From positions 23,103,168 to 23,167,167 of the forward strand of contig OZ316892.1 of the NCBI GenBank assembly GCA_973895155.1: a DNA stretch of 64,000 bases, read 5' to 3'. Position 1 is the first letter of the stretch, and each line of letters opens with the position of its first letter. A program made the position numbers and the translations under genes. This stretch comes from Marsupella aquatica. Its lineage: Eukaryota; Plantae; Marchantiophyta. The notes below the pieces were generated by a model, which saw only the letters and a list, made by a program, of their open reading frames with translations, ran no database searches and had not been told where the DNA came from. Shown here piece after piece: positions 7,401 to 54,791 of this stretch.

Positions 7401-10400
7401 GCTACATAAAGATGCACCAACTGTTGAGAAATCTTGGACAGAGTATAGCATGTCCCTCTGGAACAAGTATCGACCAATGGAAACGAATACCTGAATCGAC
7501 GTCTCGATGGGAAGAGATTGAAGAAGGACAGGTACTAATTCTGCTCTTTAGACGCAATATCAACTTTTGTTGAAAATACTTCTATTCTCCTTCCAAGTGT
7601 TGAGATTTTGGTGATAGGTAGAGTACGTGGCTAGTTCTAGTCATCATGTCATCTAAGAACATTTGAATGATTGCGTCATGCAGGGGGAAATGGAGACGTC
7701 GGTTCTGTGTGTTTATTGCTGGGAGATGGACAGTTTAAAGCTTCAAGAAACGTCCTTCCTGAAATGTCATCGTCTTCAATACTTGATACTGGATTTATGT
7801 CATAGGACAACACCGGAGAGACTGGAACTTCCCAGATCCTTGGTGTATTTGAGTTTGTCACGTGGCTCGTTTACTGCTTGCCCTGTGAATTTTACGCATT
7901 TGAGGAAATTGGTGGTTCTAGAACTTTCATATTGTAGATCCATGGAATCCCTTGTCGCTGATCTCGAGAACGTGAAGGAGCTTACTTGGTTGGAGCTTCG
8001 AGGCTGCCAAAAATTGAGAGAGCTGCCTCGGGGATTATCCAAAAAACTTGAGTACTTGGGCGTGAAGGATAATGGTCTGGAGAAGCTACCGGAGGAGCTT
8101 GGGAGGTTAATAAAACTCACTCGCTTGACGGTTACCTCGCGGCAGTTAACACGGGTTCCTGAAGGTGTAGGCAACCTGGGGTGTTTATCAGAGCTGGATC
8201 TATCTTCCACAAGCTTGACCAGCCTGCCCGAGTCCATTGGTCGTCTAGAAAAATTGAAGCGTTTGGATTTGAGATGGACATTGTTGAGTTCATTGCCAGA
8301 CAGCATATGTGAGCTCAAGTTGATGAGAAGTTTCGAGGTATCAAATACAGTGTTGGCGGCGCTGCCTGAAAATATAGGTCATCTGGTGAACTTGACGGAA
8401 TTGGGCTTGCACGAAACATGTTTGAAGTGGCTTCCTGAGTCAGTGGGGGACCTCTGTAAGCTGACAAAGCTAGATTTGCGCCACAGTCGGTTAGAATCTC
8501 TACCCAATTCCATCGGAGGGCTTATAAGCTTGGAGGAATTAGACTTGAAGAACACTTGTTTGAAGTGGCTTCCTGAGTCAGTCGGGGACCTCTTTAAGCT
8601 GAGGAAGCTGGAGTTGCGCAACACTCCGTTAGAATCTTTACCGAATTCCATCTGTCGGCTTATAAACTTGGAGGAATTAGACTTGGATAACACTTGTTTG
8701 AAGTGCCTTCCTGAGTCAGTGGGGGACCTCTGTAAGCTGAGGAAGCTGGAGTTGCGCAACACTTCGTTAGAATCTGTACCGAATTCCATCTGTCGGCTTA
8801 TAAACTTGGAGGAATTAGACTTGGGTAACACTTGTTTGAAGTTCGTTCCTGAGTCAATGGGGGACCTCTGTAAGTTGAGGAAGCTGGAGTTGCACAATAC
8901 TCCGTTAGAGTCTCTACCGAATTCCATCGGTGGGCTTTTAAACTTGAAACGATTAGTCTTGCACGACACGTGTTTGAAGTGCGTTCCTGAGTCGGTGGGG
9001 GACCTCTGTAAGCTCAGGAAGCTGGACTTGCACAATACTCCGTTAGAATCTGTACCGAAATCTATCGGTCGGCTTATAAACTTGGAGGAATTGGACTTGG
9101 AGAACACTTGTTTGAAGTGCCTTCCTGAGTCAGTGGGGGACCTGTGTAAGCTGACGGAGCTGGACTTACACAACACCCGGTTAGAATCTGTACCGAATTC
9201 CATCGGTCGGCTTATTAACTTGGAGGAATTACACTTCGAGAACACTTGTTTGAAGTGCCTTCCTGAGTCAGTGGGGGACCTCTGTAAGTTGAGGAAGCTG
9301 GGCTTGCGCAACACTGCGTTAGAAGCTGTACCGAATTCCATCGGTCGACTTGTACACTTGGAGGAATTAGACTTGGGGAAGACTTGTTTGAAGTGCCTTC
9401 CTGAGTCAGTGGGGGACCTCTGTAAGCTGACAAAGCTGAGCTTGCACAACACTCCGTTAGAATCTATACCGAATTCCATCGGTCGGCTTATAAACTTGGA
9501 GGAATTAGACTTGGAGAAGACTTGTTTGAAGTGCCTTCCTGAGTCAGTGGGGGACCTCTGTAAGCTGAAGAAGCTGGACCTGCAGAACACTCCGTTAGAA
9601 TCTGTACCGAATTCCATCGGTCGACTTATAAACTTGGGGAAATTATACTTGGTGAACACATCCTTAAAGTGCCTTCCTGAGTCAGTGGGGGACCTCTCTA
9701 AGCTGACGACTCTGGATCTGGACTGCACTCCGTTAGAAACTGTCCCGGATTCCATCGGTAAACTTGAATCTCTACGCTGGTTGTCTTTGCGTGGCACTCA
9801 GCTAAGGACGCTTCCAAGGACCATAGGAGATCTGAATCTATCTACTTTGCTGGTAAGCTCCACCAATTGGAGGGCATGGCCGTCGTCAGTCGCATTGTTA
9901 AAACTAGAGTTACTTGAAGCACCAATTAGCTCAATTTGGTCTAGTCGTGAAGCAGCTTCTTCGTACGAGGAAGTGGAAGGTGAAAGAGAGGACGGTCTTT
10001 CATCAAATCTGACGTCAGAGCAAGAAGATGGCCAAGGCGAAGAAAATGATGCATCCTGTTCCGGCTCAGAGCAGATTGAAGATCAACTAGAAGAGGATTC
10101 TGTCCTTCAAACTGACGCGACATACGTCTTCAAGATATATTCTCGTGCCTTTCAGAATGTGTCTCGCCTAAGATTAAATGGCAGATGTTGCCGGCAATCG
10201 TGGCTTCAGCCTCTGTTTCGTGCAATGCAGCAGGAAGGGCCATCCCTTGTGTATCTGCATTTGGAAGACTTCGTCTTTGCAGAGGAGATCCCTTGTGAAA
10301 TCGGAACATTGATGGGTTTACAGTACTTGTCTGTGACCGGTTGGAGCAGACTTCTGGAGTTGCCCGCGTCCTTGGGCGAGCTAGACTCCCTGGAATATCT

Positions 10401-11031
10401 GTATCTAGAAAACAATCCCAAATTACACAAATTGCCCGATTGTTTGAGTTCCTTGCCCGTCTTCCGAAGGCTCGACATCCTGCAGTGCGGGAGCTTGCAC
10501 AGCATGCCGCGCTCTTTCAGCCGCGAGTCTCCACTCCACAAACATTATTCAATGGATGTGTGCTCTTTGGGGAAGGACTATGGATGGTTGTCTTCTGTAG
10601 TTTCTGATTCATGGAGAATATTGCAATCCTTCTTGATGTGTTGCGGGAAGCTCGTCCCACTTAGTTTGAGTTACGTGGTTGAGTGCAACAAATTGGGAAA
10701 GGCACAGGAGAGAGCATTGAAAGCTCAAGATGGGGTTTATGAGCTAGAGAAGGAGGTGTTCATGGAGCTATTCAGCGAAGCGGATGGGCATCGTTGTAGA
10801 TGGGACACTGAGGAGCGTAGGCTCGATGAAGAAGAGTCTTCCACTTCCACATCCGCGATATCCTGTGGGTCGGAGTGCAAACAAAGAGATGATCCGGTTC
10901 ACGAAATGCGACCTTCCATGTGTCCTGTCCAAACCGTCGAACTTTGGTGCATGGCCGATTGTGATTTGCACGAGGAAGGGATTGAGGTCACTCTGTTCGA
11001 GGATCCCTTCAAATACTACCAATCCCCATAA
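4495..11031 (+). CDS. alpha/beta-hydrolase-NB-ARC-LRR (HNL) immune receptor, copy 1; predicted exons 4495-4638, 4954-5604, 5926-6081, 6431-7531, 7684-11031
   Basis: All junctions are GT..AG, phase 0, and conserved in copy 2. Hydrolase motifs VVFFHGL, FVGHCLGG, FFLGTP and DADHYDICKP (SERAC1/PGAP1-like). NB-ARC P-loop GLSGVGKTT, kinase-2 LMVLDNV, MHQ. Long 23-aa LRR array. Confidence 0.9.
4655..4881 (+). repeat. ~75-bp tandem repeat x3 in HNL1 intron 1
   Basis: The unit ctcccgctatacaggaaggttcaggaaaaa..gaagct(c/t)ggttccgttttgatttgccaaaattgtatgtgat occurs three times. Confidence 0.85.
8380..9760 (+). repeat. 138-bp (2 x 23 aa) coding tandem repeat, about 10 units, in the HNL1 LRR exon
   Basis: 'tgtttgaagtgccttcctgagtcagtgggggacctctgtaagctg...ccgttagaatctgtaccgaattccatcggtcggcttataaacttggaggaattagacttg' recurs every 138 nt. 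Confidence 0.9.
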
Positions 11032-15466: not shown

Positions 15467-16259
15467 CTACAACTGCAAAACCTGCAAAGTAGCACGGTGT
15501 CTTGAGAAACTCTCCAAATGAATCACTTTGGTAAAGGCATCAGCGGGATTGAGTTTTCCATCAATCTTGATTAGCTCAAAAGTTTTATCAGACACTGTTT
15601 GCCTGATAAAATGACACCTGATATCAATGTGCTTCACCCTGCTATCCATCACCTGGTTAGCAGCCAAGTGAAGAGCACTCTGACTATCACAATTTAGAGT
15701 CATTTTGCCATGCTCTAAACCCATCTCCGCGATCAACTTGTCCAACCAAATCGCTTCCTTTACAGCTTCTGTTGCTGCAACATACTCTGCTTCTGTAGTA
15801 GATTGAGATATACACTTCTGCAAGGTAGATTTCCAACTAATACATCCTCCTCCAAGAGTAAAAACAAACCCAGTTGTAGACCTCCTTGTGTCCAAATAGC
15901 CTCCATAGTTAGAATCTACATAGCCAACTAACGTTCTATCTGATCTGTTATCAAATAGTAATCCATAGTCATGTGTACCCTTGAGATACCTGAGAATCCA
16001 TTTCACAGCTTCCCAGTGTACCTTTCCTGGATTTGACATGAATCTGCTAAGTAACCTTGCCCATCGCTAGGGCCAAGTCAGGCCTAATACAAGTCATCAA
16101 ATATATCAGACTGCCTACTGCCTTCTCATAAGGAATCTTAGCCATCAGACCTTTCTCCACAGCATCCGTTGGAGGGAAAGCTGATGATAACTTGAAATGT
16201 GAAGCTAAAGGAATACTCACTGGCTTGCAGTTCTCCATGTTGAATCGTGCAAGTACTTT
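15467..16259 (-). pseudogene. Copia RT C-terminus and RNase H
   Basis: KVLARFNMENCKPV, AVGSLIYL, RPDLA, HWEAVKWILRYLKGT, GYVDS, STTEAEYVA, CDSQSA, KHIDIR, NPADAFTK; frameshifted near 16045. Confidence 0.92.
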
Positions 16260-17865
16260 CACTACAACATATTTGACACTTTTGCGAAGGTATTTTTGTC
16301 GACGCTCTTGTATTTCCGATGGGCGGTGCTTGGCATAATTTGCGAATCAACCCGCATTGCAATTTGTGATTATATCCCTATCGCAAAGATAATACTTGAA
16401 GCGCATTATATCGCTAATACGTTGCGAAGTAAGTGATTTTGCAAGTTTTACTGAAACGCGCCGAATGGAAAGGTGCCTTCTGAAGATGGGAAAATCGCTC
16501 GCCGACTCCGAAACTAACTGATAAAAATATTTGCAAAGAAGGTTGGATTGAAAATGTTTTGCAATAGTAGTTGTTTGACAAGTTTAAGAATGTCGGAGGA
16601 TGGAAGATTTGCGAAATGGTGAGAATATTAAATTTGTGATTGATTTTGAATCACAAGTTTGCGAAGAGTATAGTATGGAAATATTGAGAAACGAGAAGCT
16701 TCATAGAAATTGCGAGTCCGATGAGATTTTGTGAGCTTCGCAAGTTGTTCGCAAACTAAAAATTAAGATTATTGTGAGGTGAGACAATGAAGAGGGTGGA
16801 TGGGGCAAGAGGGAAGAGGAAGGGAGGATGGAGGGAGGTACAATGAAGGATGGAAAAGGGAGGGGAGTACAATGGAAGAGGAAGGAGGGAGGAGAAAGAG
16901 GAAGGGAGGAGGAGGGACAGATGTACCACGGAGGAGGGAAACACGAGGGTGAGAATGAAAATTATGGAATAAGTAGGAAATAAAGTTATATTGAGCAACA
17001 GAGGTTAGATAGAAAGTTGCATATAAAATTCACAAGTGATCACAATAAAACAATGCAATACATATGTCATGAGTATGACTCATTCAAAAGTGAATGGCAA
17101 ATATAAATATAGACAATACTTTTTTTATATCACCAAACATGAACAAAACAAATATAACATGAACAAATGTCTAGGCTGGACCCAAGTGCATATAAATATG
17201 TCCCTCACACTTGGTCCTCATCGGCCTCAAGGTCATCTAGGTCTGATACAATAACATCTGGCTTCTCATAAACAATGGAACGAGAACGTGGCACATAGGT
17301 GATGACAATTGACCACTCGGTGTCTAAGGGGTATGGAATGTAGAAACATTGCTCCAAGTGTGATGGGAAAGCAAATGGTTCTGATGTTTGCCAATGAGAT
17401 GCTTGAACACTAGTGGCACTTGTCTTCAACCGTGTAAACCCACTCTCATCTTGAAGTACAGTGCAATTTTGACCAACAAAGTTCACTTTGAACCACTTGC
17501 ACTTGAAGACATATTCCTCAAACTTTGAATGGTTGTCATATGATACCACCAAGATCTCCTCTATCTTCCCATAGTGTGGCACAACATCTCTAACAATGTT
17601 CCTGTCATGGCGGCTGCTTCTGGAGTCTTGAGAAAATTCCCCTTGAACTCCACAATCAAAAGTACGACCCCTCTTCTCATCAAGGGAAGAAACCCTGAAA
17701 TTAACAAAACCCACAAATTTTTATTACACAAAAGATACCATTAATGTAATAATCATCAAAATATGACACCCATCCCTAAATAGCCAAAACCCACATGGCC
17801 TATGGCATAAATATAGAAGCCAACATTACAGTTATGGATGTCATTAATGATAATAGAAAGTTTTT

Positions 17866-18196
17866 TGTCACACCATTCTGAGTAGTGTAATAGTATATTG
17901 TGCTATTAGAGTATGTACGTTTGGTATGAGTGCTATTGGAGCCGATAAGGTTCTGTCAGGTTTGTGTGAGAGGGTACTTCTCACTTGTGAGGCATTGAAA
18001 GGTCATCTTTCAATGTTGAGCCTTGGAGAGAGAGGAGCTTGAGTGTGGCTATGGTGGCTGTGAGCTCCGCTTGTGTAACGTGGATTCCTTGAGTAGTGCA
18101 AGGTGCGTTGGCTTGACATACGTGTGTGATCGGATCGGTGCGGGATCGATGGGGTATTGTTGACCGAGATCGTTGTGCCGATTGTATGGAGATTAT
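17866..18196 (+). repeat. Repeat A1 (331 bp) of the Gypsy-type element
   Basis: Matches 26992-27322 with one substitution seen (gtgtaatagt vs gtgtagtagt). Confidence 0.95.
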
Positions 18197-18463
18197 ATTG
18201 AAAGATCACATTCGAAATCTGTTGTACGGACTGTGCGGACAGAAGTTCGATTGATTGAGTTGTCGACGGTTCGTGGTAGCTCGGATCGTGTGTTGTTATC
18301 GAACAGATTGTTGGTATCTTGACCTGTATCGTTGTTGTCCGATCGGCCTGCTTCCCGATCGATGTACAGATCTGTGATTGGTGACAGGTTTTGAGTTGGA
18401 GGTCGATTGATGATTCGTGGAGGAAAGCGAATGTTGAGTAGATGTTGGACAGTGGAAGTCGAT

Positions 18464-19025
18464 CCGTGAGGCTTCAGATCCGATTGCCGGCTACTGTGAG
18501 GCTTCAGATCTGATTGTCGGCTACTATGGGGCTTCAGATCTGATTGCCGGCTATTGTTGGACGATGTTGGCAAGGCGCAGATGAAGCGACGGCTCTTTTC
18601 CTGAAGGAACGGAGCTGCCAATGCCCCGTGCGATGGTATCATCGTTTCAGTGAAAGAAACGAGGGTCAAGGGTGTTGAATCAAGCTGCTGCCAATTCTGT
18701 GGAAGGGCTGCATTTTTCATGAAGGAAATCGACAGTTTTCGGGAGCTTTTCGTGAAGGAAGTAGTCATTTTTGGGGTTAGGTGTGAGGCGCACGAGGTCA
18801 CCCATCCCGAAAGTGCTCGCGCGAGGCGACGCGTGAGGTCACCCATCCCGAAAGTGCTCCCAACCACGAGCGCGAAGTCACCCGTCGCGAGCGCAAGCAC
18901 GCAGGCAGGCGCGAGGTCGAGGTCACCCATCCCGGGGCTCTTCCGGGCTGTGAGCGCGAGGGGAGGCACAAGGTCAAGCGCGAGGAGGTCACCCATCCCG
19001 GGGCTATTCCCGGCCGCGAGCGCTT
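18464..19025 (+). repeat. Leader repeats: 30-bp unit x3 (~18464-18555) and GC-rich 'gaggtcacccatcccg' units x4-5 (~18790-19020)
   Basis: 'ggcttcagatc(c/t)gattg(c/t)cggctact' and 'cgaggtcacccatcccg' recur directly in the sequence. Confidence 0.8.
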
Positions 19026-22000
19026 AACTGGCAAGTTCTCATCCCACCTTGTGTACACACAAGCTTTGACAACTTGTTGTTTAGATTCAAGCGCCAGGGG
19101 GCTTTATATACTTCCCGGTTTGTTTAGAGGCCTATTCTAGGCCAAATCAGAGGCTGTTTGAGGGTTTTTGATACTTCTGAGTCCATCTAGACTCACAGAT
19201 TGAACCAATTTTGCCTTGGTTCTCATCTACAATATTGGAGTGCCATTGTGAAGCCTATTATGAAGGCTCTTCCTTGAACCTTATGCACATTGTCATATTG
19301 ATTTGCATTTGTTTTTGTGTGGAGAGTTGAATGGTATCCATTCTTGTTTCTGGATCCTCTTCACACATGTTTCCTGTTTATGCGCCATGTTAGTTTCGTG
19401 TGGGCGCTTGATTCCATAGGAGTGATCCGGGTTTGCAACTGGACATTCTAGTGTGCTGTGTATTTCTCTCTTGGTGATGTTGGAGTGATGCCCAACACAC
19501 CATGGTGAGTGCTTGTGGTGCTGACAGGGATAGATTGCCCTTAGGGTTAGCACATAGATTAGGTTAGGGTTGGTCACCACGGATTCTTCTGGTGCTGCTG
19601 GATTACCCGATGGACGACGGACCGGTTTCACTCGGAGTGGGGCACAGTTTCGGCCAGCGGCATTGGTAGCAGTCAGCAGTGCAGCTTCAGACAGTGATTC
19701 TGATGAGGACTCAGTGACCAGTTCTCCTCATCATCAGGTGGTTGCACCTTTGTTGTGGGATATGGACGAGATGTACGGGGCTACAAAGGGCCCACGACGA
19801 TACTCTGGTGCAGTTGGCACAATTGATCTGGATGACTTCATCCAGGAGTTTGATACGTGGTGCGATATGCAGACATTGCGTAATATCACGTTGTTTACCC
19901 CTTTCATGGCATGGAAGGGATTATTCCAGCATTTGGAGGGGCCACCCATGGATGACTACCATGAGTTTCGGAAGGCTCATTTGGTTGAAATTGAGGCATG
20001 GAGGCAGCATTGGTCGCCTAATTACGTGTCCATCACCTATGGCACTAGTGCGGCTGCCCAACCAATTGCCACAGCTGCTGCTTCTTCTAGCAGCACTAGC
20101 CAGAGTGGCACACCATCCACCAGCAGCACTCCAGCAACATCCACCACTACTCCTGCCGGTGTGATTGTGACAGGAACTGGAGTTGCGCCAGCATTTAATC
20201 CTGTGGTGGAATTCTTTGAGGTACTGAAGCAGAACTATCAGGGTGTGAGAATTGATAAGTTGAAGGGTCTTCAGGAGTTCCAACGCAAGATTGGAGAGAG
20301 CCTACGTGAGGCATACACACGTATGCGCAGATTGATCACTGTCACCAAGGGAGTGACAAAGGCTCAGGCAGTCCAATTTTGGTATGCAATTCTGGACAGA
20401 GAATTGCGACGCAGAGTGAGAGATGTCACTCTGCTTAGGGATGCAGATCCCACATTAGCAGTTGTTTTCACCCTTTCTGAGCGCATTGAGCTCAATATGG
20501 TGAATGAGAAGGTGGTGACTTTCGGATTTGCCAAGGAAGCACCAAAGGCTGCATCTACATCCACACCACAGCCTACTGCACGGAAGAGCCAGAGGGAGAA
20601 GCCTACTGCACGAGAGTCTACCAGCCAGAGACCTGTGCCCTCTTATGCTGGACAGCAGTCAGGATGTTGGACCTGTGGTGGGGATCATGCACAGAGATAT
20701 TGTCCAGATCATAGAGGATCAGGGGGAGCATCAGCGCCTGATCAACGATAGTGTGATCACTGTGGAGCTCCTGGACACACCAAGGATAGGTGTTTCTCAC
20801 TCCACCCTGAGTTACGGAGAGGAGGATCCCGTACACATGATCAGGGAAGAGGAGGTAGAGGTGGTGGATGTGGTCGTGGCATGCCACATGCAGGGAGACA
20901 GGGAGGTGACGCTGCCCCTACTATAACCATAGATCCAAAGGATGCTAAGATTGCTCAATTGGAGCAACAACTAGCTGCCATGGCTAGTTCCCAGGTGAGA
21001 CCTAATTCTGGTGATGGGGCATCTACATCCTATGGACCTTCCACATCCCATGGTCCTTCCACATCTTATGGAGCTGATGGAGACCTTGCCACCATGGGAT
21101 TCATGTGTGGCACTGCACATATTGATGCATCAGCAACTTTGACACGTGGGGCAGCCAAAGCTCTTGAGCCCCGAGGAGCAGTAGTGGAGTTAGATCCACA
21201 AAGGGGGGATGCACGTCGACAGACAAAGCTTCCTCAGTCTTTTACATTGTCAAAGACAATTCAGACTGCCTCTATGAACCCGGTTCGGACAAACCCTGAT
21301 GTGGGTAAGTTGGCAGAATCAGGTAGTGATGCAGCAGGGATGACATGTACCTTGCTGGGGGCGGCTACTGCCATAGTACGCACCCCATTATTTTCAGCGA
21401 CAGACATGCTGAACTTGGGAGTTGGTCCTGCAGAAGTGTTTAGATTGGCAGCTACACTCTGTGAGGACACTCCAGTGGTTGCTTCCCATGCAGAAGCAAC
21501 TTGCAGTGTTGATGCAGTGAAGACCATGCCACCTACTACTACTAGTGAGACATGGCATGCAGCAGCAGCGAGGTTGGTGGATTTACCAGCACGCCCTGCA
21601 TTTGAGAGGACTAGGTTTAAACCTAGTGTTGTGTCATTGGATAATTGGAGTGTATCTTCCGATTAGTTGGGCCTTCTGGAGCAGTATACCAGCCAGAGAG
21701 AGTGTTACTGGATACTGGTGCTCAGCCCTTGATGTTGGGGAAGTCTGCCATACGTGGATTGGGATTGCGTCCAGAGGATTTGGAGGATTGTCCCTTTCCC
21801 ATTCAGACTTCATTGGGGGGACCTACACCTACACAGCATATCACCAGGAGACCACTTGATTTGAGGATTCAGGAAGGTCATACCACAGATAGCTCACAGA
21901 TACAGGCGCGAGCTATTCTGACTAAGGCAGAGTCATATGATGTGTTGGTGGGATGTACAGTGCTCTACCCCATGGGATTTATTCTTGATTTTTGGGAGGA

Positions 22001-22409
22001 ATCAGTGTCATATAGACCTGATTGGCAGTCAGGAGATGCTCGATTGAGCAAATTGCCAATGAGATTTAGTGGACCTATGGGAGGCCCTAAATCCACACCA
22101 TTATCTTTGGCAGCATTCAGTGGTGTAATTGCTGGACCTGATGATTTGATTGAGGGTAATGCGCATGCAGCCGATGTTCCACCATTGGAGGAGTCTCATG
22201 AGGAGCACATCATGCGAGGATTACCTATTGGCAGTGTTGTGCCACCAGTGTGGGGCACTGCACAAGCCTTGCCACAGGCAATAGCACGATTGGTACATGA
22301 TGCATGGCGTCATGCTTTTACACCACAGTCAGGAGTAGAGCAGTCTCTTGCAGATGGACCTGTGACTCTTTCACCATTGGATACCACTCCTATTGCTTGG
22401 CAATATCCA

Positions 22410-23370
22410 CCGGAGGGTATTTGTTTGTTGGATCTTTTTGGTGGGATTAGCACTGGATTGGCTGCTGTTCTTCAGGCAGGAATTCCTGTGCGTCGTTATT
22501 TATATGTGGAGACAGATGAGACAGCACGGAGGGTCTCATTGCGACATGTGGCTATGTTGGTGGATAGATATCCACAGTTGCTACCAGTGGATGCTGTTCG
22601 TGGTTATCAGCATGCACTACCTGCTGATATTTCATTGCTGGGGGCGGATCATCTGCATCGTGTTGGCCCCATTGATTTGGTGATTGCTGGTTGGCCATGT
22701 CAGGGCCAATCTAGAGCTGGCGTTGGGCATGGACTTCATGATCCACGCTCTGCATTGTTTTGGGAGATGTTACGGGTGCTGCGTCACCTCTAGCTACATC
22801 AGACACAGTCTCCAGCATACATTTTGGAGAATGTGCCATTGTTAGGTGATGATCGTAGTCGGATTGTTGCCAGTGTTCACCAGGTGAGGTCTTGGATTGG
22901 ACCTGCTGTGTTATTGGATGCTGCACGTGTGGGTTCTCGTGCACATCGTCCACGCTTATGGTGGACTAATTTGATCCCATGTGAGGTGCTGAAGCGCGCA
23001 TTTGATAGCATTCTACGCTCACCAGCCTTAGTGGTGGATGATATTTTGGATCCAGGGCGTCGTGCACAGGGTGTGACCCAACCTGATAGACCTCCATTGG
23101 CAATGGTCAATGCAGTTGGGTGCCCACGTTGTGCATTACCCACTCTTGTAAGCCACTCTGCTTCATATGCATTCAGAGCAGGTGGCCCTGGACTTGTATG
23201 GGACACAGCTCTCCAGCAGTTAGTGGAGCCTACTGCTGATGAGAGAGAGCGTGCTATGGGATTTTTGACTGGCACCACTGTAGTTGCCTCTGTGTCAGAG
23301 GATTTGCGGCGCCAGGTTCTTGGTCAAGCAATGGATTTGAATTGTTTGACTTGGATTATCAGCTTGGGAG
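22410..23370 (+). pseudogene. Cytosine-5 DNA methyltransferase domain (DNMT3-like) embedded in Pol
   Basis: Motifs in canonical order: I LDLFGGI, II YVETD, III ADI, IV IDLVIAGWPCQ, V GLHDPRSALF, VI ENV, VIII AHRPRLWWTN, IX ERERAMGF, X RRQVLGQAM. One TAG at 22791-22793. Confidence 0.9.
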
Positions 23371-26300
23371 TAGCTGAACAGTTGCGGATGCGCTCTGCCG
23401 GAATTACTGATTGTCCCTTGGTGAGCTTGCGGTCCACTGAGACAGTATTGACCACAGCTGGGGGCGAGCAAATAGTCCATGGACCTATGACAGGATTGGC
23501 AGCTGGACAGATTGTTGAGCAGGAAGAGACTGCTCAATCTACTGCTAAATAGCAATCATCGGCTATCTCTTCTACCCTACAAAGAGATATTAGGGATTTG
23601 GTGGAGAGTTGGGAACCACAGCTTGGCCCTAAGTTAACAGGGGAGGAGAGACGTCGCATGCATCGATTCCTGAAGAGTTATTGGAATTGTTTTGCATTCA
23701 GCATGAAGGATTTGGGGACATTGAAGGGCCCTGGTATTCAGATTGAATTGGCTAGTGATGCACCAATCTTTCGTAGACCATACCGTTATAGTGACATGGA
23801 GAGAGCTCTGATTCAAAGCAAAACTCAAGATTTGTTGGAGGCTGGATTGGTGGAGATTTCATATGGGGAGTATGCATCTGCCACAGTGATGCCAGCCAAG
23901 AAGGATGTGCATGGCAATTACACAGATAGGCGCATGTGTGGTGATTACAGACCTATTAATCGCTAGACAAAATCTGATCGATATGCCATGCCCACACCTG
24001 AGGAGATCTTTGATGCTGTGGGGCATGCAAAGGTTTTCAGTTCATTGGATCTGAGGGCAGGATACCATCAGCTTCCAATTAGGCATGCTGACAGGTCCAA
24101 GACAACATTCTGGGGGATTGATTCTTATGGCAAAGATCGTTTGTATCAATGGTTATTCTTACCATTTGGGTTGAAGAATGCACCAGTTGAGTTCCAGAGA
24201 GTCATGGATCGAATCCTTGCAGGTTTGGATTTTGTCAGATGTTATATTGATGATATTTTGGTCTATTCTTCTAATGTGGAAGAACATCAGCAGCACTTGC
24301 AGACTGTGTTGGAGAGATTGAGAGCACATGGGTTGAAGCTCCATCCTAGCAAGTGTAAGTTCTTCAAAGACCAGATTGAGTATTTGGGCCACACCATATA
24401 CCCAAGGGGATTGGGTGTACAGCAGACTAAAGTGGAGGCCATTACACAGATTCCTTGTCCTACTGATGTGAGTAGAGTTCATGCATTCTTGGGATTGGCG
24501 AGCTACTACAGGAGGTATGTTAAAGGATTTAGCCAGCTTGCTAAACCTTTGACCATACTCACTAAGTTGGATCAGGAATGGATTTGGGGTGATGACCAGG
24601 AGCATGCCTTTCAGGAGTTGAAGCAAAGGTTGGCATCATCCCCTATTTTGAGAAGACCCATTTCAGGCAGACCATTTCAGCTACACACTGATTGGAGTGG
24701 AGTAGGACTTGGAGCAGTGCTGACTCAGAAGGATGATGAGGGGAATGAGTTTGTTGTGGCTTATGCCAGTAGATCAAACAATTCAGCAGAGGCTAAGTAT
24801 AGCTCTTATGAGGGAGAGTGTTTGGTAGCAGTGTGGGCTGTTGCACACTTTCGTTGCTACTTGTTTGGTAACCCCTTCACCTTGATCACTGATCATCAGC
24901 CTCTTAAGTGGTTAATGGAGTCTGACAAGCTTACAGGGAAGCTTGCACGATGGGCATTGTTGTTACAGGAGTATGATTTCCAGGTGGTGCATAGGCCTGG
25001 AAAAGTGAACTTGGATGCAGATGGATTAAGCCGCAATCCATGTACCAGTCAGCAGGATGAGACTGGAGCCAGATGGCATGATGAGTCAGATAGGGAGATG
25101 GTGCTAGGATGGCATGCATCTGCCTTTCTTTGTTGGGTGCCAGCATACAGTGAATCTGTGGACTCTACTTCATTGGATGGAGTGGGTGATGAGTCTTCAG
25201 ATGTGGATGTTGGTGAGGTAACTTCTGGACAACAAGATATTCACAATGATGTGAGAGTGTTGGAATATCTGCGCAGTGGTTCTATTGTTGGCAGTGTTGA
25301 TGCCAAGGAACGTGACAGGGTTCTACAGAGAGCCAAGAGATTTCGATGGGAGGGAAACCATCTTTTGAGAGTACTGCATGATGGTAGGATGTTGGTGGTA
25401 CCAAAACCATCACAACGAGTACATTTGGTGCGACATGCGCACGAGGAGTTGGGTCACTTTGGTGTGAAGCGCACTTACAGCTTGCTGCAGACACAGTATT
25501 GGTGGCGTGGTATGCACACTCATGTCCAACAGTTGATAGCTAAGTGTGTGGTATGTGATAGAGTGAGAGCATCATTTAATGCTCCCACTCCCCAGTTGCA
25601 CCCGTTGCCGATCATGGGTTTGGGATATCGTTAGAGTTTGGATTTTGCTGGTCCATTACCTCTTACCCAACGTCATAATCGGTATGTTTTGGTCATGGTG
25701 GAGCACTTCTCCAAGTGGATTGAGCTAGTGGCATTGCCAGATAAAGCCAGTGGAGGAGTTGCTGCTACATTTTTGGATCGTGTACTCAGTCATTTTGGAG
25801 CACCAGCTGAGGTGTTGACTGATCAAGGAACTGAGTTCCGTGGAGAGTTTGAGAGTTTGTGTGAACAAGCTCTGATTGATCATCGTACTACCTCTCGTGA
25901 TCATCCTGAGGCAGATGGATTAGCTGAGAGAGTTGTGCAAACTGTGAAGAGAGGATTGCGTAAGTATGGCTTGCAGGTTGGTCATCTGGGAGATTGGGAT
26001 CTCCAGCTACCTTGGTTAGCTATGGGCTACCGTTTCAGTCGGCAAGCATCACTTGCATCCTTCTCACCCTACTTTTTGCTCTATGGTAGAGAGCCAGATT
26101 TGCCAGCAACTATTCGTCGTCATGCTGCACCAGTTGTGAACTTGGATGATCCTGATGTTTGGGTCAAGGTGTGTTCAGAGAGAGCACGGGTATTTCAGAG
26201 AGTGATGCCCATGGCTTTTGACAACCTTGCCATTGCCCAACATCGTGATACTTTGAGGTATGCCACTATTCGTGGAGGAGGTTACCGTGCAAGCATTCGA

Positions 26301-26534
26301 CGATTTCATCCTGGTGATTATGTTTATTTGCAGCAGACAGCACCCACGACACTTGATGTGACCGCAGGCCGGACAATCTTACGTGTGCGTGAAGTGTTGC
26401 CTTCTGGTGTCCTGATGTTGGAGGGACGCGATGGTATGGTTTGGAAGGATCATGTGCGCAACTGTGCACCATGTCACCTTCCCAACATTGATGGTACAGT
26501 AGATCCAAGCTTGGCACATGTTCGTGCTGGCTTG

Positions 26535-26678
26535 AAATGTATGTTGTGTGGATCTGCTCAGGGAGCAGCTACTATGTTGATTTGTGATAAGTGTTCTAGA
26601 GGATGGCACATGTCATGTTTGACACCACCATTGCAGGTGATTCCTAGTGGATCATGGTTGTGTCCTCAGTGTCGGTGA
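26535..26678 (+). other. PHD finger (C4HC3) at the integrase C-terminus
   Basis: CMLC..MLICDKC..GWHMSCLTPPL..IPSGSWLCPQC. Confidence 0.9.
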
Positions 26679-26853
26679 AGCCGACTAGTTATCATTTGTG
26701 TTCTCTTGGCAGATATGGATTGCAGGTAGGTGATCGATGGGGCTCACTTGCACCCGGCCTCCTGATCTTCACACCTAAAAAGGTGTATATCAACCTTGTA
26801 GAACTCATGGCTAGCTAGAGTTAGGGGACCTTACTCCCAGCTAGGGGGGCGAT

Positions 26854-27458
26854 TGTGGGTTTTGGACATGTGTGGACATGAGTTCCACTTGTATTCCATT
26901 CTCTTGTATTTGTGATGTGGCAGTGTGACTATGTCTGGATGTATGTGACAAGCGATGTATGTTGTGTAGCGATATGTATGCGCACGACAGCTGTCACACC
27001 ATTCTGAGTAGTGTAGTAGTATATTGTGCTATTAGAGTATGTACGTTTGGTATGAGTGCTATTGGAGCCGATAAGGTTCTGTCAGGTTTGTGTGAGAGGG
27101 TACTTCTCACTTGTGAGGCATTGAAAGGTCATCTTTCAATGTTGAGCCTTGGAGAGAGAGGAGCTTGAGTGTGGCTATGGTGGCTGTGAGCTCCGCTTGT
27201 GTAACGTGGATTCCTTGAGTAGTGCAAGGTGCGTTGGCTTGACATACGTGTGTGATCGGATCGGTGCGGGATCGATGGGGTATTGTTGACCGAGATCGTT
27301 GTGCCGATTGTATGGAGATTATTGTGGGTTTTGGACATGTGTGGACATGAGTTCCACTTGTATTCCATTCTCTTGTATTTGTGATGTGGCAGTGTGACTA
27401 TGTCTGGATGTATGTGACAAGCGATGTATGTTGTGTAGCGATATGTATGCGCACGACA
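26854..27458 (+). repeat. 3' terminal B1-GC-A2-B2 array (B1 26854-26989, GC 26990-26991, A2 26992-27322, B2 27323-27458)
   Basis: B1 and B2 (136 bp) appear identical; A2 matches A1; the B1/A2 junction reads GACAGCTGTC. Confidence 0.93.
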
Positions 27459-30400
27459 TTTTTAACAATAGAAATAACTAATCAAAATAAGGTCTACATG
27501 AATTAATAGAGGAAGAAAGGTTAGGTACTAGTGGACCTGAAGTGTCTCCCTTGTGTCCACATAGCCGTCTTGGATGTCACCACTCTCAAAGGGCCATGAA
27601 CAATGGTCCGAACGTTATCTGTGATGGTAGGAAAGTGGGACACATCTCCTCCTTGTGTCACCATGTCATCCAACTCAAGCAACTTTTGCTTCATATACTC
27701 ATGCATCTTAGGAAAAATTCTTGCTCTTTGACTTGTTCTCTTGGCATTCTCATAAAACTCTCTCCATTTCTCCATGATATTACTATTACTCAACATAAAT
27801 GTTGTCAACTGTGACCACTCTGTTGATGTCAACATGCATGTTTTTGTGGCACCTGTTAAATGGTCCTCCTCCTCTTCTCTTTCCTCCATCCAAGTACGTG
27901 GACAAGTAGGATCAATGGTGGCCAAGATATTACTACAATAAAACATACTCTCTGCTGCCAAGTATCCTGTAGCTATGCTTCCCTCCACCCGTGCACGGTT
28001 ACGTACATAAGCCTTCAACACCGCCATGTAACGCTCAAGCCAATACATCCATCTACAATGCACTGGACCTGCAATGGCAACCTCCCGCACAAGATGCACA
28101 AGTAAATGAACCTGACAATCAAAGAAGGAAGGAGGAAGGGCTTTCTCCAACTTGCATACCACCTCAGCTGCCAATACCTCCATCCCAGGGATCTCTTCTA
28201 CATATATCTCCTTTGAGCATATCCATCTCAACAAATGACCCAATGACCAGATGGCATCTTGCACTTCTTCACTCCCTATACCTATAATTGCCACTGGCAA
28301 TATATGCTGCAATAGGCGATGATAGTCATGTGTCTTCAGATATCATGGCCACTTGTGATTGTCCTCCATCCCAAAAGCTTTTCGAAGGTTGGCACCATAG
28401 CCTGTAGGAAACCGCATCTCTCCTATACGGTTCCGAAATTCACGTCTTTGGCCAACACTCAACACCCAAGGAGCAGAAGGACGATTCTCCACACCTGTGA
28501 TAGGATCAGTTGTCACCCAAACATCTGGATGCATTTCCATCTCCTCGCATGCCTCCCTAAAATTAGTGTCCTTCTCCCCATAAAAATGCTTTATCAAAGC
28601 CTTCCCCACATTTCCCTCTATGTGCATGGGGTCTAAGAGATGGCGGATCTTCAACTCAGACCAATAGGGCAAAGTGGCTAGTATACTCCACCTGGTCAAA
28701 CCTGTCCTATCAAAGGTGAAGGAATCATTTGGGTCTGCCACCCTATCAGCTAGTGACTTCCAATGTGCAAAACTTGTTGCATCAGGAATTTCACGCTCAT
28801 GCATCACCAAATGGCATGTCAAAGGAGGAGAATAGAAGTGGGTCAAACCTCATCTCATGCCCCATGGGAAGAAACTTTGTATGCCCAATATAAACAATCT
28901 TTCTAATCCATGAACAATATGTGGCCATGTCCTCTAAGCTTGGGCCACAAGTAGAGCAAGCTTTGTACCCCTGAGTTTGCAATCCAGAGACAAAACCAAA
29001 CTCTGCTTACATAGAAGAAATCAAACCATGCAAACTTTATGTTAGGGTTGTCACATGAGAAACAACAATAGGAACTACACATTATTGAAGGGTTGCAAAT
29101 GGCATGGAAGTCATCTTACCAGGATAGTCATGCATTGTCCAACAAATGATCCCTCTCAATTGAAAGACACGTGGAAAACCTCCTGTAATTTTCCTGCCAT
29201 CATATGCCCACACTCCATCCCATAATTTTTGAAGTTCTCCAACCAATAGTGCCAAGTAAGTGTCAAAGTTCTTCACCTTTTTTGGACCTAGGATAATCAA
29301 AGACAATAAAAGGAACCCCTTCTTCATGGATAGCCATGGTGGGAGGTTATAATTCATGACAACCACAGGCCAAACTGATGTAGGTTGCCCCTTTTCTCCA
29401 AGTGAATGAGGGCTAACTCCATCAGATGCCAATCCTAGCCTCACATGGCGAGGATCATGTGCAAAGTCTGGCCATGTTGCCTCAATATGTTTGTGAGCAG
29501 GGGAGTCAACTGGCAACCGCATGACACCAGACTCTGATCGATGAGTCTTATGCCATACCATCAACTCTGCCAAGTCAGAACACCGATACATGTGCAACAA
29601 CCGAGGAATGATGGGAAACCAACGAACAGCCTTCCTTGGCACCTTCTTTGTTAGCATGTTGGGGTCATAGCGAGGCTCATCACATGTTGTACATTGTGTC
29701 ATGTTTGCATTGGCCCCATGAAATAACATGCAATCATTCACACATGCATGAACAATATGATATTCCATGCCAATAGATGAGAGAACACTCTTTGCCTCCT
29801 TCCAAGTTGCTGGCAACACATTCTCAGTGGGTAACATAAGGTCATGGCAAAGTGCAAACATATCAGATAACAAGGCATTGCTTGCCTTGTGTTTGGCCTG
29901 TAGGTTCATCAACCCCAAGATGGCTAAAAGACGACTCAAACGAGCACCCTCATAGATAGGTGTTCAGGCATGTTCCTCTGCTTCTTCCCATTGGCGTTGT
30001 CCCTCAGGGGTATGTCTTGGGCGTGGATCATTGGGGGGCACCTGCCCTTCATTGGGAAGGTCATCACCAGGGTTGTCGGCACCAAACCAATCAACCATAA
30101 AGTCATCCATGGCTCTATCCTGGTCATCAGTTACTTGTTCATCCGTCCGAGGTACCTCTTCATCAGGGTTACTGCTTCCACTAGCACTTGATGAGGAGTG
30201 TGACTCTGATCCATGTCCTTCTTCTGGCATTCCCATTTCTCGATATGTTGCTCTCAATCTCCGTGGTAACATATTTGGAGAGGGTCGCACATTCTAAAAA
30301 CAAAGCAAACAACTGAAAGTTATATTGCAAAGAGAACACACACAAAAATGGGCTAGGGGTGTGCAAAAATGAAATAATATTGGTTGTGGTGCAAATACAA

Positions 30401-30469: not shown

Positions 30470-31622
30470 CTAATCCCACTCATAGTGAGTAAATAACTCA
30501 TCCCCTGAGTTAATGATCCTCGTCGCTACAACTAGGCAATGGTCATGATGATATGTCTGGCCATAAGGTGCTGGCGGAGGACCCTCAATGAAAACCCACT
30601 CACAATTTTGCCTACGCTTAGGGCGAGTCCCCACGGTACTGTTTATGAAACCAGCAATATTCCCAGTCCGTATGGGGTCCCCATCTATGACACGCTGCTC
30701 ACTATACCTTCTAGTGTTTCCATCAAAAGTATCCATGTCCAATGCATAAGTCTTCCACTCAGGGTGTTGTGCAAGGATCATGTTCCAATGTCTTCTCTTG
30801 TAAATGGGTCCACCATAAGGAAACAAAGTAGGCCCCTCTCGGCCGCGTCCACCTCTACCACTCTCGGCGTCCACAATGATGTCCTCACAGGCAAAAACTC
30901 CATAGCCATGTCTATCCCCAAGTGTGGAAGGTTTGATAACCCAACGTCTACCCCAAACCTCTACCTCCTCACCGTAGGAAAGCTGTTGTGGTAAACCAAG
31001 AGTCTCAAGATCCCAGTCCTTGATGATAGGGACACATCTGCCAGTGAACTCACAATCACCCCACCTACCCGTAACCACTGCCTTGTACAAATCAGTATCC
31101 CCTCAGGCCCGCCTCTTGGAACGCTTTCTCCCTCTTGGGACAATAGCCTCAACCCCAACTTCCCTAGGACTGGTGGGCCTTGCCGCTAGACCCAAGGCTT
31201 TTGAGAATGCATTGCCTATAGCATCTAGAACACCTTGTGATGGGACATAGGGTGCTTGTGCCGCAGGTCTAGGCCTATTGGATACCTATTCCACCGAAAC
31301 CAAAACAAACAAAAGTAGGTGTGAAATTAAAAACCTTCAACCATTGAGTAATGGGAATAGGGTAGGAAAACTAAGTCATAACACTTACCATATGAGATGA
31401 AGAAGCCCCTGCCGTATGACGTCCACAACGCCCATATCTCTCAATATGTTGGGCACATATGTAAGATTTTTGGGAAACCTGACCCACACATCTGGAACAT
31501 TCACAAAGTTGACGGGGTGGACCGCGAGGAGGAGGTGCGGTCGTGTGATGTTGAGGTGGAGGTGGTGTATCTTCATCAGAGGAGGACGAGTCTGTGGTGG
31601 AGATTTCAGAAGATGAAGACAT
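30470..31622 (-). pseudogene. CACTA-borne SET-domain (lysine methyltransferase-like) gene; predicted exons 31622-31389 and 31285-30470, one in-frame TGA at 31103-31105
   Basis: IKPS..GYGVFACEDI, PYGG, IDG, GNIAGFINS, QNC, LVVATRIINSGDELFTHY. Phase-0 donor ATG|GTAAGT and acceptor AATAG|GTA. Confidence 0.8.
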
Positions 31623-35599: not shown

Positions 35600-38500
35600 T
35601 TTCCTCGCATAGTGGCCTTGACTCAAGCATAACTGTCTCGTATCAGAGTTCCTAAAAATCTCCATCCCTAAGATCTTCTTGGCCTTACCAAGATCCTTCA
35701 TCCTTCATCCTGAATTCAACACTTAATTTTGCCTTGATACTGTCAACCTCAGATTGATCTTTAGCCACAATCAACATGTCATCCACATAGATAACCAGTC
35801 AGAATGATGAAACCAAACACATCATTCTTGACTGATTTTGTATACACACAAAGATCATACACCATCCTTGTAAAACCTTGAGCAAGCATGAAATCATCAA
35901 ACCGCTTGTTCCACTGCCTGGGAGACTGCTTCAATCCATACAAGGACTTGAGCAATCTGCAAACTAAGTTCTCTTGGCCCTTCTTCATAAAGCCTAGTGG
36001 CTGTCTCATGAAGATCATCTCTTCCAAGTTGCCATAGAGAAAAGCAGTAACAACATCCATCTGATCCATCACCAGACCAAAAAACACAACAAACTGACAC
36101 AAGATCCGAATTGTGGAATACTTAGCCACCAGTGAAAAGACCTCCTTGTAGTCCACTCCTTTCTCCTAAGTGAACCCCTTGGCAACAAGCCTTGCCTTGT
36201 AGATCTTATCTCCACCCTTTGAAGGACTGTCCTTCAACTTGTAAATCCAATTGCTGTCCACCACTTGCTGACCTCTTGGAAGCTCCACCAGCTCCCATGT
36301 CTTGTTGTCACTCAAAGATTGCAACTCTCTCTGCATTGCTGCATCCCACTCATGCTTCTGCTCTAAAGCACAAGCCTCACTATACGAAGAAGGCTCTCCT
36401 TCTTCCAAGATCAAAGTCATGTCATCATCATCAGGTGCAATGTCAATATCATCTAGCTTAGATGAGTCTGCCCGTTGACCATACCTGGTAGGAGCTCTAG
36501 TAGAACGACTGGAAGTTCTTCTAGTAGATGACTCAAGCTAATCTACTGCTGCTGCTGGCTGAATTTGAGGTACCCCAACAACAATCTGCTTCTCTTATTC
36601 CATCATAGGAACCAGCTCCAAGCCCATAGCTTCTCCATCACTCCTGTCATGAACAACATCATGACTAATCTCCCCCTCAACCCAGTCCGGGATGAGAGAT
36701 TTCCCCTTGTCAGTATGGGAGTCTTGAGAACTCTCCCCCTCCTTTGATGATCTGGACTCATTAAAGGACACATCTCTACTGACAATTAGCTTATAGGTTA
36801 CTGGATCCCATAACCTATAACCCTTCAGACCTTTTTGATAGCCAAGGAAAATGCACTTCTTCGACTTGAAGGTGTAAGCACATACGCATCACATCCAAAA
36901 ATCCTCAGATGTGAGTAATCTGTTGGACGCCCGTACCTCATTTCAAATGGTGTCTTGAATCCAATAGAACTAGATGGAGAAAAATTTACCAAATAAGCTG
37001 TAGTGTTGACAACTTCAGCCCAAAACTCATGTGGTAAGCATGATTGACTCAACATACTCCTCGAGCGGTCCAATAGTGTTCGGTTGAGTCTCTCAAAAAC
37101 ACCATTTTGCTGAGGAGTATAACTTGTTGTGAGATGGCGGGTGATCCCCTGCTCCTTACAATACATTCCAAATTCCCCAGAACTGTATTCACCGTCGTTA
37201 TCCGATCGAAGATATCTCACCTTTTTACCAGTCTGATTCTCAACTTGGGCTTTCCACTCCTTAAAAGTGGCAAAAACATCAGACTTACTGTGTAGAAAGT
37301 ATATCCACACATACCTTGAATAATCGTCTATGAAGGTGACATAGTATAACCATCCAGAATGTGAGGGAGTAGGGCCTGGACCCCACACATCACTATGTAC
37401 ATACTCAAGTACCTCCTTGCTAGTGTGAGTTCCAACTCCGAAGGGTTTTCTGTGCTGCTTTCCAAGCACACAGTGCTCACAAAATTCCAACTTACAAGAT
37501 TGCAAATTAGAAAGTAATAATTTCTTCGGAAGTATAAGCAAACCTTTTTCACTCATGTGGCCCAAACGGAAGTGCCACAACCGGGCCGTCTCCTCATGAG
37601 ATAAGGTTACATTGGCTTCATCACAGACTACATTGCCCTCCAAAATATATAGATTGTTATGTCTCTTTCCCTTCAATACAACTTTAGTATCAGTTGAAAC
37701 CTGAAGGACACCATTAGCAGAACTCCAATGATGGCCATTTGCCTCTAAAACTCCAAGTGAAATGAGATTTTTCATCATGCTGGGAATGTGTCTCACATTC
37801 CTCAACGTTCTTACAGCATCATCAAACATCTAAAATCTAACAGATCCAAGTCCAACTACTTGACATGGTTTTCCATTTCCCATCAACACTGACCAGTTGG
37901 AAACCGTGTAAGAACTGAAAAAATCTCTCCTAGAGCAAATGTGAAAAGTACATGCACTATCTAGAATCCAGTCATCACTACTTGGATTTGACACTATGTT
38001 GAGAGCATAACCTTGGCATCACAATATGTCATCATCATCGAGTAAATCTACCTCATGCAAACTCGATGCCGCGTTAGCAGATGCAGTAGGGTTCTTTACT
38101 CGACAATCCCTTTTCATGTGGCCTGGCTTGCCACAATTTCAACATGCAAGAGGCTTCCTCTCTTGCGATTTCCCTTTGGATTTAGATCTCCCCCGTGATG
38201 TAGATCTAAATCTGTTCTGGCCATTCGTGCGTTGCGCTGCTCTTCCCCGATTCACGTTCAGCGCAGTGCCAGAAGTAGATGCTGTCTGTGATTGACCCAG
38301 CTTCTTCTGAGCATCATCAGACGGCAAGGAGCTCACCACCTCATTATACAAAATGGACTTCAGATCTCTATACAAGAGCACCTGTTTCAAGCCCTGATAT
38401 GACGGCGGTAAGGAGCTTAGCAGAAGCAAGGCCTTATCCTCATGTTCAACTCCTTTTCCCAAGTTTGACAAATCCACCGCTAGACTGTCAAACTCATCCA

Positions 38501-39083
38501 AGTGATCCTGCATCTTGCTCCCTTCCTTGAGTCTAAGGCTCATCAAGAGAGACTTCTTGTACAGCCGGTCTGACACATCTTCCCGGTAGTACTTCTCTCT
38601 TAGAGCCTTGAACAGTGATGCACAATCCGCATAATCATCCAGCTGCTTGATGATGTACGGCTTGAGATAAAGCATCACTGCATTGATAGCAATCACCTGC
38701 TCCTGTCTCCATTGCTTCTCTGAGATCTCCTCTTCTCCATCATACTGCTCTCGCGAAGAGAGTAGATGAGCTAAGCCCATGGCCCGTAGAACACCCTTCA
38801 CTTGCTTCTCCCACAACAAGTAGTCAGTACGACCATCATACTTCTCCACCTCAAACTTCACTCCTCCAAATCTAGCCATCTCCCTCTTCTTTCCTACTAC
38901 CGACAGCTCTGGTAGTAGTACAGCTTCCTCCACTGCTCGTCGCACCGGTGATCGTACCGATGTCACTAGTTCCTCCTCAAACGGTAGCAGCTCCTCCTCA
39001 GACTCTCCGTCTGACCGTCGCGATCCTGAAGCTCCACCGACACCAATTCTTCTAGTATCCTCCGAGTCACTCATATGAAACAA
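35600..39083 (-). pseudogene. Copia gag, protease, integrase and RT N-terminus
   Basis: FEVEKYDG..YLLW, LLSSLP, CxxCGKPGHMKRDC, WILDSACTFH, LWHFRLGH, HSDVWGP, FIDDYSR, LRSDN, PQQNG, YKARLVAKGF, QMDVVTAFL, SLYGLKQSPRQW. Several stops and frameshifts. Confidence 0.93.
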
Positions 39084-48700: not shown

Positions 48701-48751
48701 TACACAAACCCCACCCAACAGTGGGCTTTTTTACACTTGGAAGGGAAATGA
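42797..48751 (+). CDS. alpha/beta-hydrolase-NB-ARC-LRR (HNL) immune receptor, copy 2; predicted exons 42797-42931, 43321-43971, 44295-44450, 44808-45908, 46061-48751
   Basis: Same exon structure and phases as copy 1, open frames, same hydrolase, NB-ARC and LRR motifs, shorter LRR array. Confidence 0.9.
42948..43248 (+). repeat. ~75-bp tandem repeat x4 in HNL2 intron 1
   Basis: Same unit as 4655-4881 with one extra copy. Confidence 0.85.

Positions 48752-51205: not shown

Positions 51206-54791
<3,586 letters not shown>

Follow-up and report, generated by a model that had tools for sequence, protein, structure and literature searches.

A defective Gypsy-type retrotransposon of the liverwort Marsupella aquatica with a DNMT3-like methyltransferase domain, a conserved and probably leaky stop codon, and insertion ends that likely lie within its long terminal repeat

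Analysis of a 64,000-nucleotide stretch of Marsupella aquatica DNA (assembly GCA_973895155.1, contig OZ316892.1, positions 23,103,168 to 23,167,167 of the forward strand; hereafter the window, in whose coordinates all positions are given) revealed a Gypsy-type retrotransposon at 17866-27458 with the order Gag, protease, DNMT3-like cytosine methyltransferase (DNMT), TAG stop, reverse transcriptase (RT), RNase H, integrase and PHD finger (Table 1). Pfam scans and motif positions identified the Gypsy order protease-RT-RNase H-DDE integrase. The scans also placed the protease, a methyltransferase domain of about 320 aa, RT, RNase H, integrase and PHD finger in a single plus-strand frame, 21645-26678. 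An earlier reading of the letters without database searches (the sequence-only reading) had proposed a Gypsy-type element with a C5 methyltransferase domain between protease and RT in the same frame, which these scans confirmed. The extent that it gave, 21645-26678, holds for the coding frame, but the element starts at 17866, and the PHD finger and the repeats had been missed. According to Pfam, the integrase C-terminus carries a PHD finger in place of a chromodomain. Scans of all open reading frames (ORFs) of the element found no tyrosine recombinase family, and a DDE integrase (rve) instead.

Table 1. Position of the retrotransposon's features in the window.
Feature	Positions	Strand	Evidence or remark
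Left target-site duplication TTTT, 4 bp	17862..17865		
Repeat A1, starts TGTCA, 5' end of element	17866..18196	+	330/331 identical to A2
Stretch in A complementary to priming site; predicted transcript 5' end / self-primer	18002..18014	+	
Predicted self-priming primer-binding site directly after A1, not tRNA-like	18197..18209	+	
gag, two zinc knuckles	19762..21651	+	tblastn of P0004, P0439
Aspartic protease, LDTGA at 21708	21687..22034	+	PF13650 E 0.004, below cut-off
DNMT3-like C5 cytosine methyltransferase domain	22407..23369	+	Pfam, PDB sequence search, AlphaFold model, Foldseek
Conserved stop TAG-CAA-TCA, CAR-YYA readthrough context, closes Gag-protease-DNMT ORF	23550..23558	+	
RT (YIDD 24243) and RNase H	23712..25019	+	Pfam, motifs
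DDE integrase with HHCC finger	25440..26144	+	Pfam (rve), motifs
PHD finger, integrase C-terminus	26538..26675	+	PF00628 E 3.6e-11
Polypurine tract directly before B1	26843..26851	+	G run conserved in 6/6 aligned elements
Repeat B1, ends CACGACA	26852..26989	+	138/138 identical to B2
Palindrome GACA-GC-TGTC (GACAGCTGTC) at B1/A2 joint	26986..26995		Halves are the integrated element's ends
Repeat A2, after GC spacer following B1	26992..27322	+	
Repeat B2, 2-nt overlap with A2, 3' end of element	27321..27458	+	
Right target-site duplication TTTT	27459..27462		

The methyltransferase motifs follow the canonical order that had been read from the letters, from LFGG (motif I, 22434) through GWPCQ (22689; catalytic PC at 22695-22700), ENV (22827), HRPR (22944) and ERAMGF (23241) to LGQAMD (23319). 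With stops read as X, the frame matched the hidden Markov model PF00145 (E 1.3e-9), a check that the sequence-only reading had called for. A sequence search of the PDB returned DNMT3A/B/C in 29 of 32 matches (best E 2.3e-12; M.HaeIII 6.6e-5). An AlphaFold model of the domain (pLDDT 86, pTM 0.89) ranked DNMT3 chains first in Foldseek (E 7e-19). A structural ranking among 48,161 representatives placed DNMT3B (Z 26.9, root-mean-square deviation 2.9 over 274) and DNMT3A (Z 26.1) ahead of bacterial M.MpeI (24.1), M.HhaI (21.4), DNMT1 (19.1) and ZMET2 (17.7). Placed by sequence similarity and fold ranking, the domain is unpermuted and DNMT3-like, the kinship that the sequence-only reading had proposed from its wording.

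Pairwise ratios of nonsynonymous to synonymous substitution (dN/dS, NG86) of the DNMT domain were 0.07-0.19 in ten between-family pairs with finite dS, but the dS of such pairs is mostly near saturation, which weakens them as support. The one unsaturated pair among the ten, L022/L023 (related loci carry L numbers and related proteins P numbers), showed dN 0.032, dS 0.265 and a ratio of 0.12. The median for the window against 60 loci was 0.14. These values are similar to that of the protease (0.12) and higher than that of RT (0.04), and four pairs of decayed same-family copies gave 0.43-0.63. By these ratios, the DNMT is under purifying selection. A neutral one-off capture, for which the sequence-only reading had left room, is ruled out by the presence of the domain in many loci and by the between-family ratios.

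The catalytic cysteine is conserved in 72 of 73 loci, and catalytic C, ENV, RXR and the SAM-binding motif I are retained in nearly all bryophyte-type loci. This argues against the alternative, unlikely in our view, that the domain is retained for nucleic-acid binding, for a structural role or for methylating RNA, and not as a DNA methylase. The same holds for the SymbioDIRS-Dnmt3 domains, which methylate CG in yeast and for which cis methylation of the cDNA has been proposed (de Mendoza 2018, PMC5890265). The alternative would agree with the replacement of GWPC by GWEC ahead of the catalytic cysteine, seen in 59 of 144 distant domains; many of these escape Pfam annotation. It would also agree with the behaviour of the Klebsormidium domain, which produced no methylation in yeast, a result that its authors call inconclusive (PMC5890265). 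That result equally speaks against an active enzyme in our element, as does the observed/expected CpG ratio of 0.35 (0.30 in the neighbouring CACTA transposon), a depletion that is unspecific and not stronger than that of its surroundings.

The window copy is dead, with four nonsense codons and one frameshift. The sequence-only reading had counted one TAG to repair; the frame 21645-26678 holds TAG codons at 22791 (DNMT domain), 23550, 23964 (RT/RNase H part) and 25632 (integrase), with a further TAG at 20749 in gag and a gag/protease frameshift near 21652, at which point the frame is continuous in 52 of 56 related loci matched by tblastn. Judged from the related loci, the TAG at 23550 is conserved and not damage. 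Both anchors were present in 62 loci, which give 59 distinct spacers. In 49 of the 59, the first stop ahead of RT in the RT frame is TAG or TAA with CAR behind it, against a baseline of 2.4% CAR among spacer codons; the other ten are mostly frameshifted or further mutated. The remaining three stop sites of the window correspond to sense codons in 65/79, 37/57 and 22/30 loci. In four sequencing runs no alternative letter reached at least 40% of the depth at 23550-23558, but the control position 23964 (near the stretch edge; a stop in 20/57 loci) showed none either, so that this comparison does not discriminate.

CAR-YYA after a stop drives readthrough in plants (PMC2754532). At the sequence level, UAG, CAR-YYA and an in-frame downstream ORF, the elements of a readthrough signal of the tobacco mosaic virus (TMV) type, are all present at 23550, and the full CAR-YYA occurs in five of six lineages. 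The closest proteins, P0003 and P0439, terminate one codon before 23550. Many intact-looking Gag-protease-DNMT proteins terminate 77-163 residues past motif X, and 14 cluster members are stand-alone RT-RNase H-integrase-PHD proteins of 1013-1056 aa. Since a conserved stop in this context stands behind the DNMT, bulk translation of Gag likely yields the enzyme along with it, at Gag level, and RT-integrase-PHD likely arises by readthrough. The earlier placement of the DNMT inside Pol is right as to the frame shared with RT, but the domain ends the Gag-protease ORF and the conserved stop separates it from RT. Several observations stand against a general leaky stop: L059 has TAC at the position; in the large moss-type family the bases after the stop read CAA-CCC, without YYA; TAA replaces TAG in 15 of the 49 stop-CAR spacers; and the deeper relatives P0045, P0307, P0486, P0491, P0057 and P0300 lack the stop, with DNMT and RT in a single open ORF in some deeper relatives. 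Furthermore, one moss-type family makes up most of the 81 loci, some of which are a single insertion met in more than one sample, so that counts overstate independence.

The repeats are split direct repeats in the layout A-internal-B-A-B, flanked by a 4-bp target duplication. This layout is found in the window, L052 and L056; L024 and L038 show B-A-B, and L005 shows A-internal-B-A up to the contig end. The 4-bp duplication is perfect in four of seven elements with both ends and one transition off in the other three; a 5-bp duplication, which fits only the window, was rejected. Among 8604 internal 13-mers just one, the 13 bases that follow A1, has a complement in A at no more than one mismatch. 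L056 is also self-complementary at the priming position, using a different sequence, and minimum-free-energy folding formed the self-priming stem in L056 and not in the window. Self-priming as in Tf1/Tcn1 is predicted from these sequences. Priming by tRNA was rejected, with no TGG after A and no tRNA genes in the window.

Because the polypurine tract (PPT) precedes B and the priming site follows A, standard long terminal repeat (LTR) logic defines the LTR as B+A. The integrated ends lie at the B/A palindrome, inside the LTR so defined. Palindrome, PPT and the 3' end of B are conserved across lineages about 50% identical in their DNMT. The PPT is followed by B then A in five distinct loci and by B then host DNA in nine; the A-internal-B form occurs in nine distinct loci. 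The start of B is joined, at the same base each time, to the end of A (five cases including the window), to A with the priming site (L032/L034), to a point inside RT (L049/L059) or to sequence after the PHD finger (L028), a pattern that would result if a free left cDNA end were joined to a right end, either complete or shortened. The integrase thus likely cuts mid-LTR on end-joined cDNA.

PAT and Ngaro elements share the layout A1-B1-A2-B2, and a route like theirs would explain the repeats differently: RNA would run from A1 to B2, the internal B1-A2 joint would template the ends, and A-internal-B-A-B would be the sole primary product, with A-internal-B formed later by B-B recombination, which preserves the target duplication. 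We consider this route unlikely. The PPT before B1 and the priming site after A1 indicate ordinary two-primer LTR reverse transcription, the precise junction of the B start with truncated internal sequence or a retained priming site in three independent copies is what a free DNA end would leave, and about half of Tf1 cDNA keeps a copy of the primer-binding site. Some findings nevertheless count against mid-LTR cutting of end-joined cDNA. None of 17 distinct 5' A copies is preceded by B, as the PAT/Ngaro-like route would have it, versus five copies with B-A after the PPT. A plain two-LTR circle cut at either joint should also yield A-B-A-internal-B, and none was seen, so that an asymmetry must be assumed, which may arise because reverse transcription makes the left LTR double-stranded before the right one. 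A-internal-B is derivable from B-B recombination as well, and base sharing between B1 and B2 is uninformative in three of four elements; in L052, B1 and B2 share three non-majority bases.

One further copy, L032 (12560-13456)/L034, breaks off in RNase H. Behind the break come an internal segment in inverted orientation, A, a priming site that has been retained, and B, and the 4-bp duplication on the two sides is perfect. The copy looks like an auto-integration or end-joining product.

We lean slightly towards reading the window element as a dead Gypsy copy of a kind whose DNMT likely methylates its own cDNA in the particle, whose leaky stop likely yields RT-integrase-PHD and whose integrase likely cuts the mid-LTR palindrome; it weighs against this reading that its enzyme, readthrough and insertion route are all deduced from sequence. 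RNA would start inside A1 and self-prime like Tf1/Tcn1, giving linear cDNA of the form (B-A)-internal-(B-A). Most ribosomes would stop at UAG-CAR-YYA, making Gag-protease-DNMT the bulk product, from which the protease would release many DNMT copies beside new, unmethylated cDNA. Both ends used by the integrase would come from the CA-GC-TG joint in the left LTR. The B severed from that LTR would be joined to the right cDNA end, by a circle before or end-joining after strand transfer, giving A-internal-B-A-B, which would be the only form to keep a repeated R and to be capable of another round of copying. A-internal-B would result from a one-LTR circle or from cuts at both joints. The PHD finger would steer integration on chromatin. 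Methylation in cis of the element's own cDNA in the particle is plausible by analogy, the more so given expression at Gag level; candidate benefits are a fit into the methylated host genome, protection and self-dampening.

The PHD finger is conserved across the clade and stands directly behind the DNMT-integrase pair in chlorophyte-type elements, which would suit an action of the DNMT in trans on host chromatin, near the insertion site or on competing elements, with the PHD finger as reader, comparable to DNMT3 with its ADD domain; a Gag-level excess would permit this. We regard it as distinctly improbable: in the window subclade stop, RT and RNase H lie between writer and reader, protease cleavage would split the two, and the Klebsormidium methylome is unaltered (PMC5890265). 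Methylation of the element's own cDNA is the reading we keep. Its extension to a green-lineage-wide clade, in which a DDE integrase would insert end-joined cDNA via the mid-LTR palindrome and an active DNMT3 packaged at capsid level would pre-methylate new copies, including conserved CpGs beside the site, is possible though doubtful. At the 3' end of B, beside the cut site, three CGA sites spaced by about 16 nt are conserved (window 26950-26989; L005, L038, L022, L062, L081) despite general CpG loss; for cDNA methylation this is a hint only.

The DNMT-element family is common to Marchantia, Calypogeia and Sphagnum, and is found with a different domain order in chlorophytes. Of the named proteins among the matches listed, those of Marchantia (74%), Calypogeia (72%) and Sphagnum come closest, and these relatives form a group with the window element (SH-aLRT 99). 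Searches returned 62 long and 237 shorter relatives (names from the best 120 of 237), the named sources among the matches listed being Marchantia, Calypogeia, Riccia, Sphagnum, Closterium and Mesostigma; no protein named as Klebsormidium was among them. Marchantia polymorpha gene models of the family include Mp4g09160 and Mp8g17980. A profile search gave 523 clusters (50% identity) at E<=1e-30, 150 of which were listed. Integrase-PHD relatives numbered 338, and the best 120 of 338 include a Coleochaete transcript, Pleodorina, Tetrabaena and Haematococcus; 55 of these 120 carry a DNMT in the same protein, mostly between RNase H and integrase, as do the chlorophyte-type relatives P0285, P0229 and P0266.

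Quick IQ-TREE phylogenies, midpoint-rooted with no outgroup or reference RTs (64 rows for RT-RNase H, 58 hand-picked rows for DNMT), agree in separating a streptophyte group with the DNMT before RT from a chlorophyte group with the DNMT after RNase H. The two-clade split and the congruent trees suggest an association far older than a Klebsormidium-specific capture. Viral contigs contained no relative when searched with P0003 and only six weak prokaryotic-type matches when searched with A1. Genome contigs gave one true relative (L081) and four weak Streptomyces matches. L081, from a cyanobacterial assembly, assembles with a 127-nt terminal overlap; it and P0082, from a metagenome-assembled genome, stand under bacterial labels and are most likely plant contamination.

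Judged from its sequence, the element is a land-plant relative of KnitGypsy-Dnmt3 of Klebsormidium nitens (PMC5890265); this kind of element is called 'Gypsy-DNMT3' of streptophytes in bioRxiv 10.64898/2026.05.21.726589 and is mentioned in PMC12344493. The two elements have in common the Gypsy domains, a DNMT3-like domain that is intronless and unpermuted, repeats in the DIRS-like order A-coding-B-A-B (Fig. 4c legend) and purifying selection on the DNMT (Ka/Ks < 0.2 in K. nitens; PMC5890265). In KnitGypsy-Dnmt3 the DNMT shares an ORF with RT and RNase H, whereas in the window element, which has a land-plant host, it closes the Gag ORF before the stop. An independent acquisition was reported for K. 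nitens, whereas relatives of the window element span bryophytes, Coleochaete, Closterium, Mesostigma and chlorophytes. The main text of PMC5890265 does not mention PHD, and its passages give no repeat mechanism; its figures or supplement may show domain order, PHD and more hosts. A search of the accessible literature turned up no description of a Gypsy-DNMT3 family from bryophytes or chlorophytes, of the leaky stop or of mid-LTR ends. Domain content and repeat layout are already known from KnitGypsy-Dnmt3; new are the conserved, putatively leaky stop and the predicted mid-repeat insertion ends.

PAT, Ngaro and SymbioDIRS elements have the same split direct repeats and a methyltransferase domain (PMC4157794; PMC5890265), but they use a tyrosine recombinase, where the window element has a DDE integrase, PPT, TG...CA ends and a 4-bp target duplication. 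Tf1/Sushi and the plant Tcn1 chromoviruses share self-priming (predicted here) and a chromatin reader at the integrase C-terminus; that reader is a chromodomain and not a PHD finger, Tf1 has ordinary LTR ends, and these elements carry no DNMT (PMC6317226, PMC11042837). PHD fingers in retrotransposons are already known (PMC6673714). An in-frame stop sets the ratio of two products in TMV-type UAG-CAR-YYA (PMC2754532) and in gag-pol of murine leukaemia virus (PMC5009743), but in the window element a DNA methyltransferase would be part of the product made up to the stop, along with Gag and protease.

The leaky stop suggests that the element invests in the methylase on the scale of Gag; the role of transposon-borne DNMTs thereby becomes testable, and the occurrence of the family in Marchantia polymorpha offers a tractable model for which methylation mutants exist. 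In the textbook view, LTR retroelements integrate via the outer ends of linear cDNA. HIV-1 integrase reportedly cleaves palindromic two-LTR junctions. Foamy virus integrase cuts such a junction, and its halves become the ends (PMC1180852). In both viruses the palindrome arises by joining outer ends, whereas in the window element each LTR itself encodes the palindrome, and the joint of the outer ends comes to lie internally. The genomic footprints place the ends inside the LTR defined by reverse transcription, which would explain DIRS-like split repeats in an element with a DDE integrase; these repeats were noted in 2018 without explanation in the cited passages (PMC5890265).

The window copy lies within a CACTA transposase region. 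Empty-site joints were found in two of four sequencing runs; the joint has six letters versus T-TTTT...TTTT-T in the window copy, consistent with a 4-bp duplication. The repeat pairs differ at 1 of 469 positions, so that the insertion looks recent; the lesions therefore probably pre-date it, and the copy was likely mobilised in trans, gene conversion and assembly polishing being the alternatives. At position 25633 other copies carry a different letter at no less than 96% of the depth in all four sequencing runs. Just upstream of the CACTA transposase, a SET-domain ORF (30470-31102, minus strand; PF00856 E 1.3e-5) is possibly a histone-methyltransferase-like domain carried by CACTA.

Elsewhere in the window, two paralogous NB-ARC-LRR genes (4924-11031 and 43291-48751, plus strand) are each preceded by an alpha/beta hydrolase-looking ORF without a Pfam match, an arrangement which we take to resemble the bryophyte hydrolase-NLR class; their LRR exons hold 138-nt repeat arrays of differing lengths. 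Fragments of Copia-type elements lie at 36825-39083 and 15467-16066 (both minus strand). An AAA ATPase exon (53797-54276, plus strand; PF00004) presumably belongs, by its look, to a proteasome regulatory subunit.

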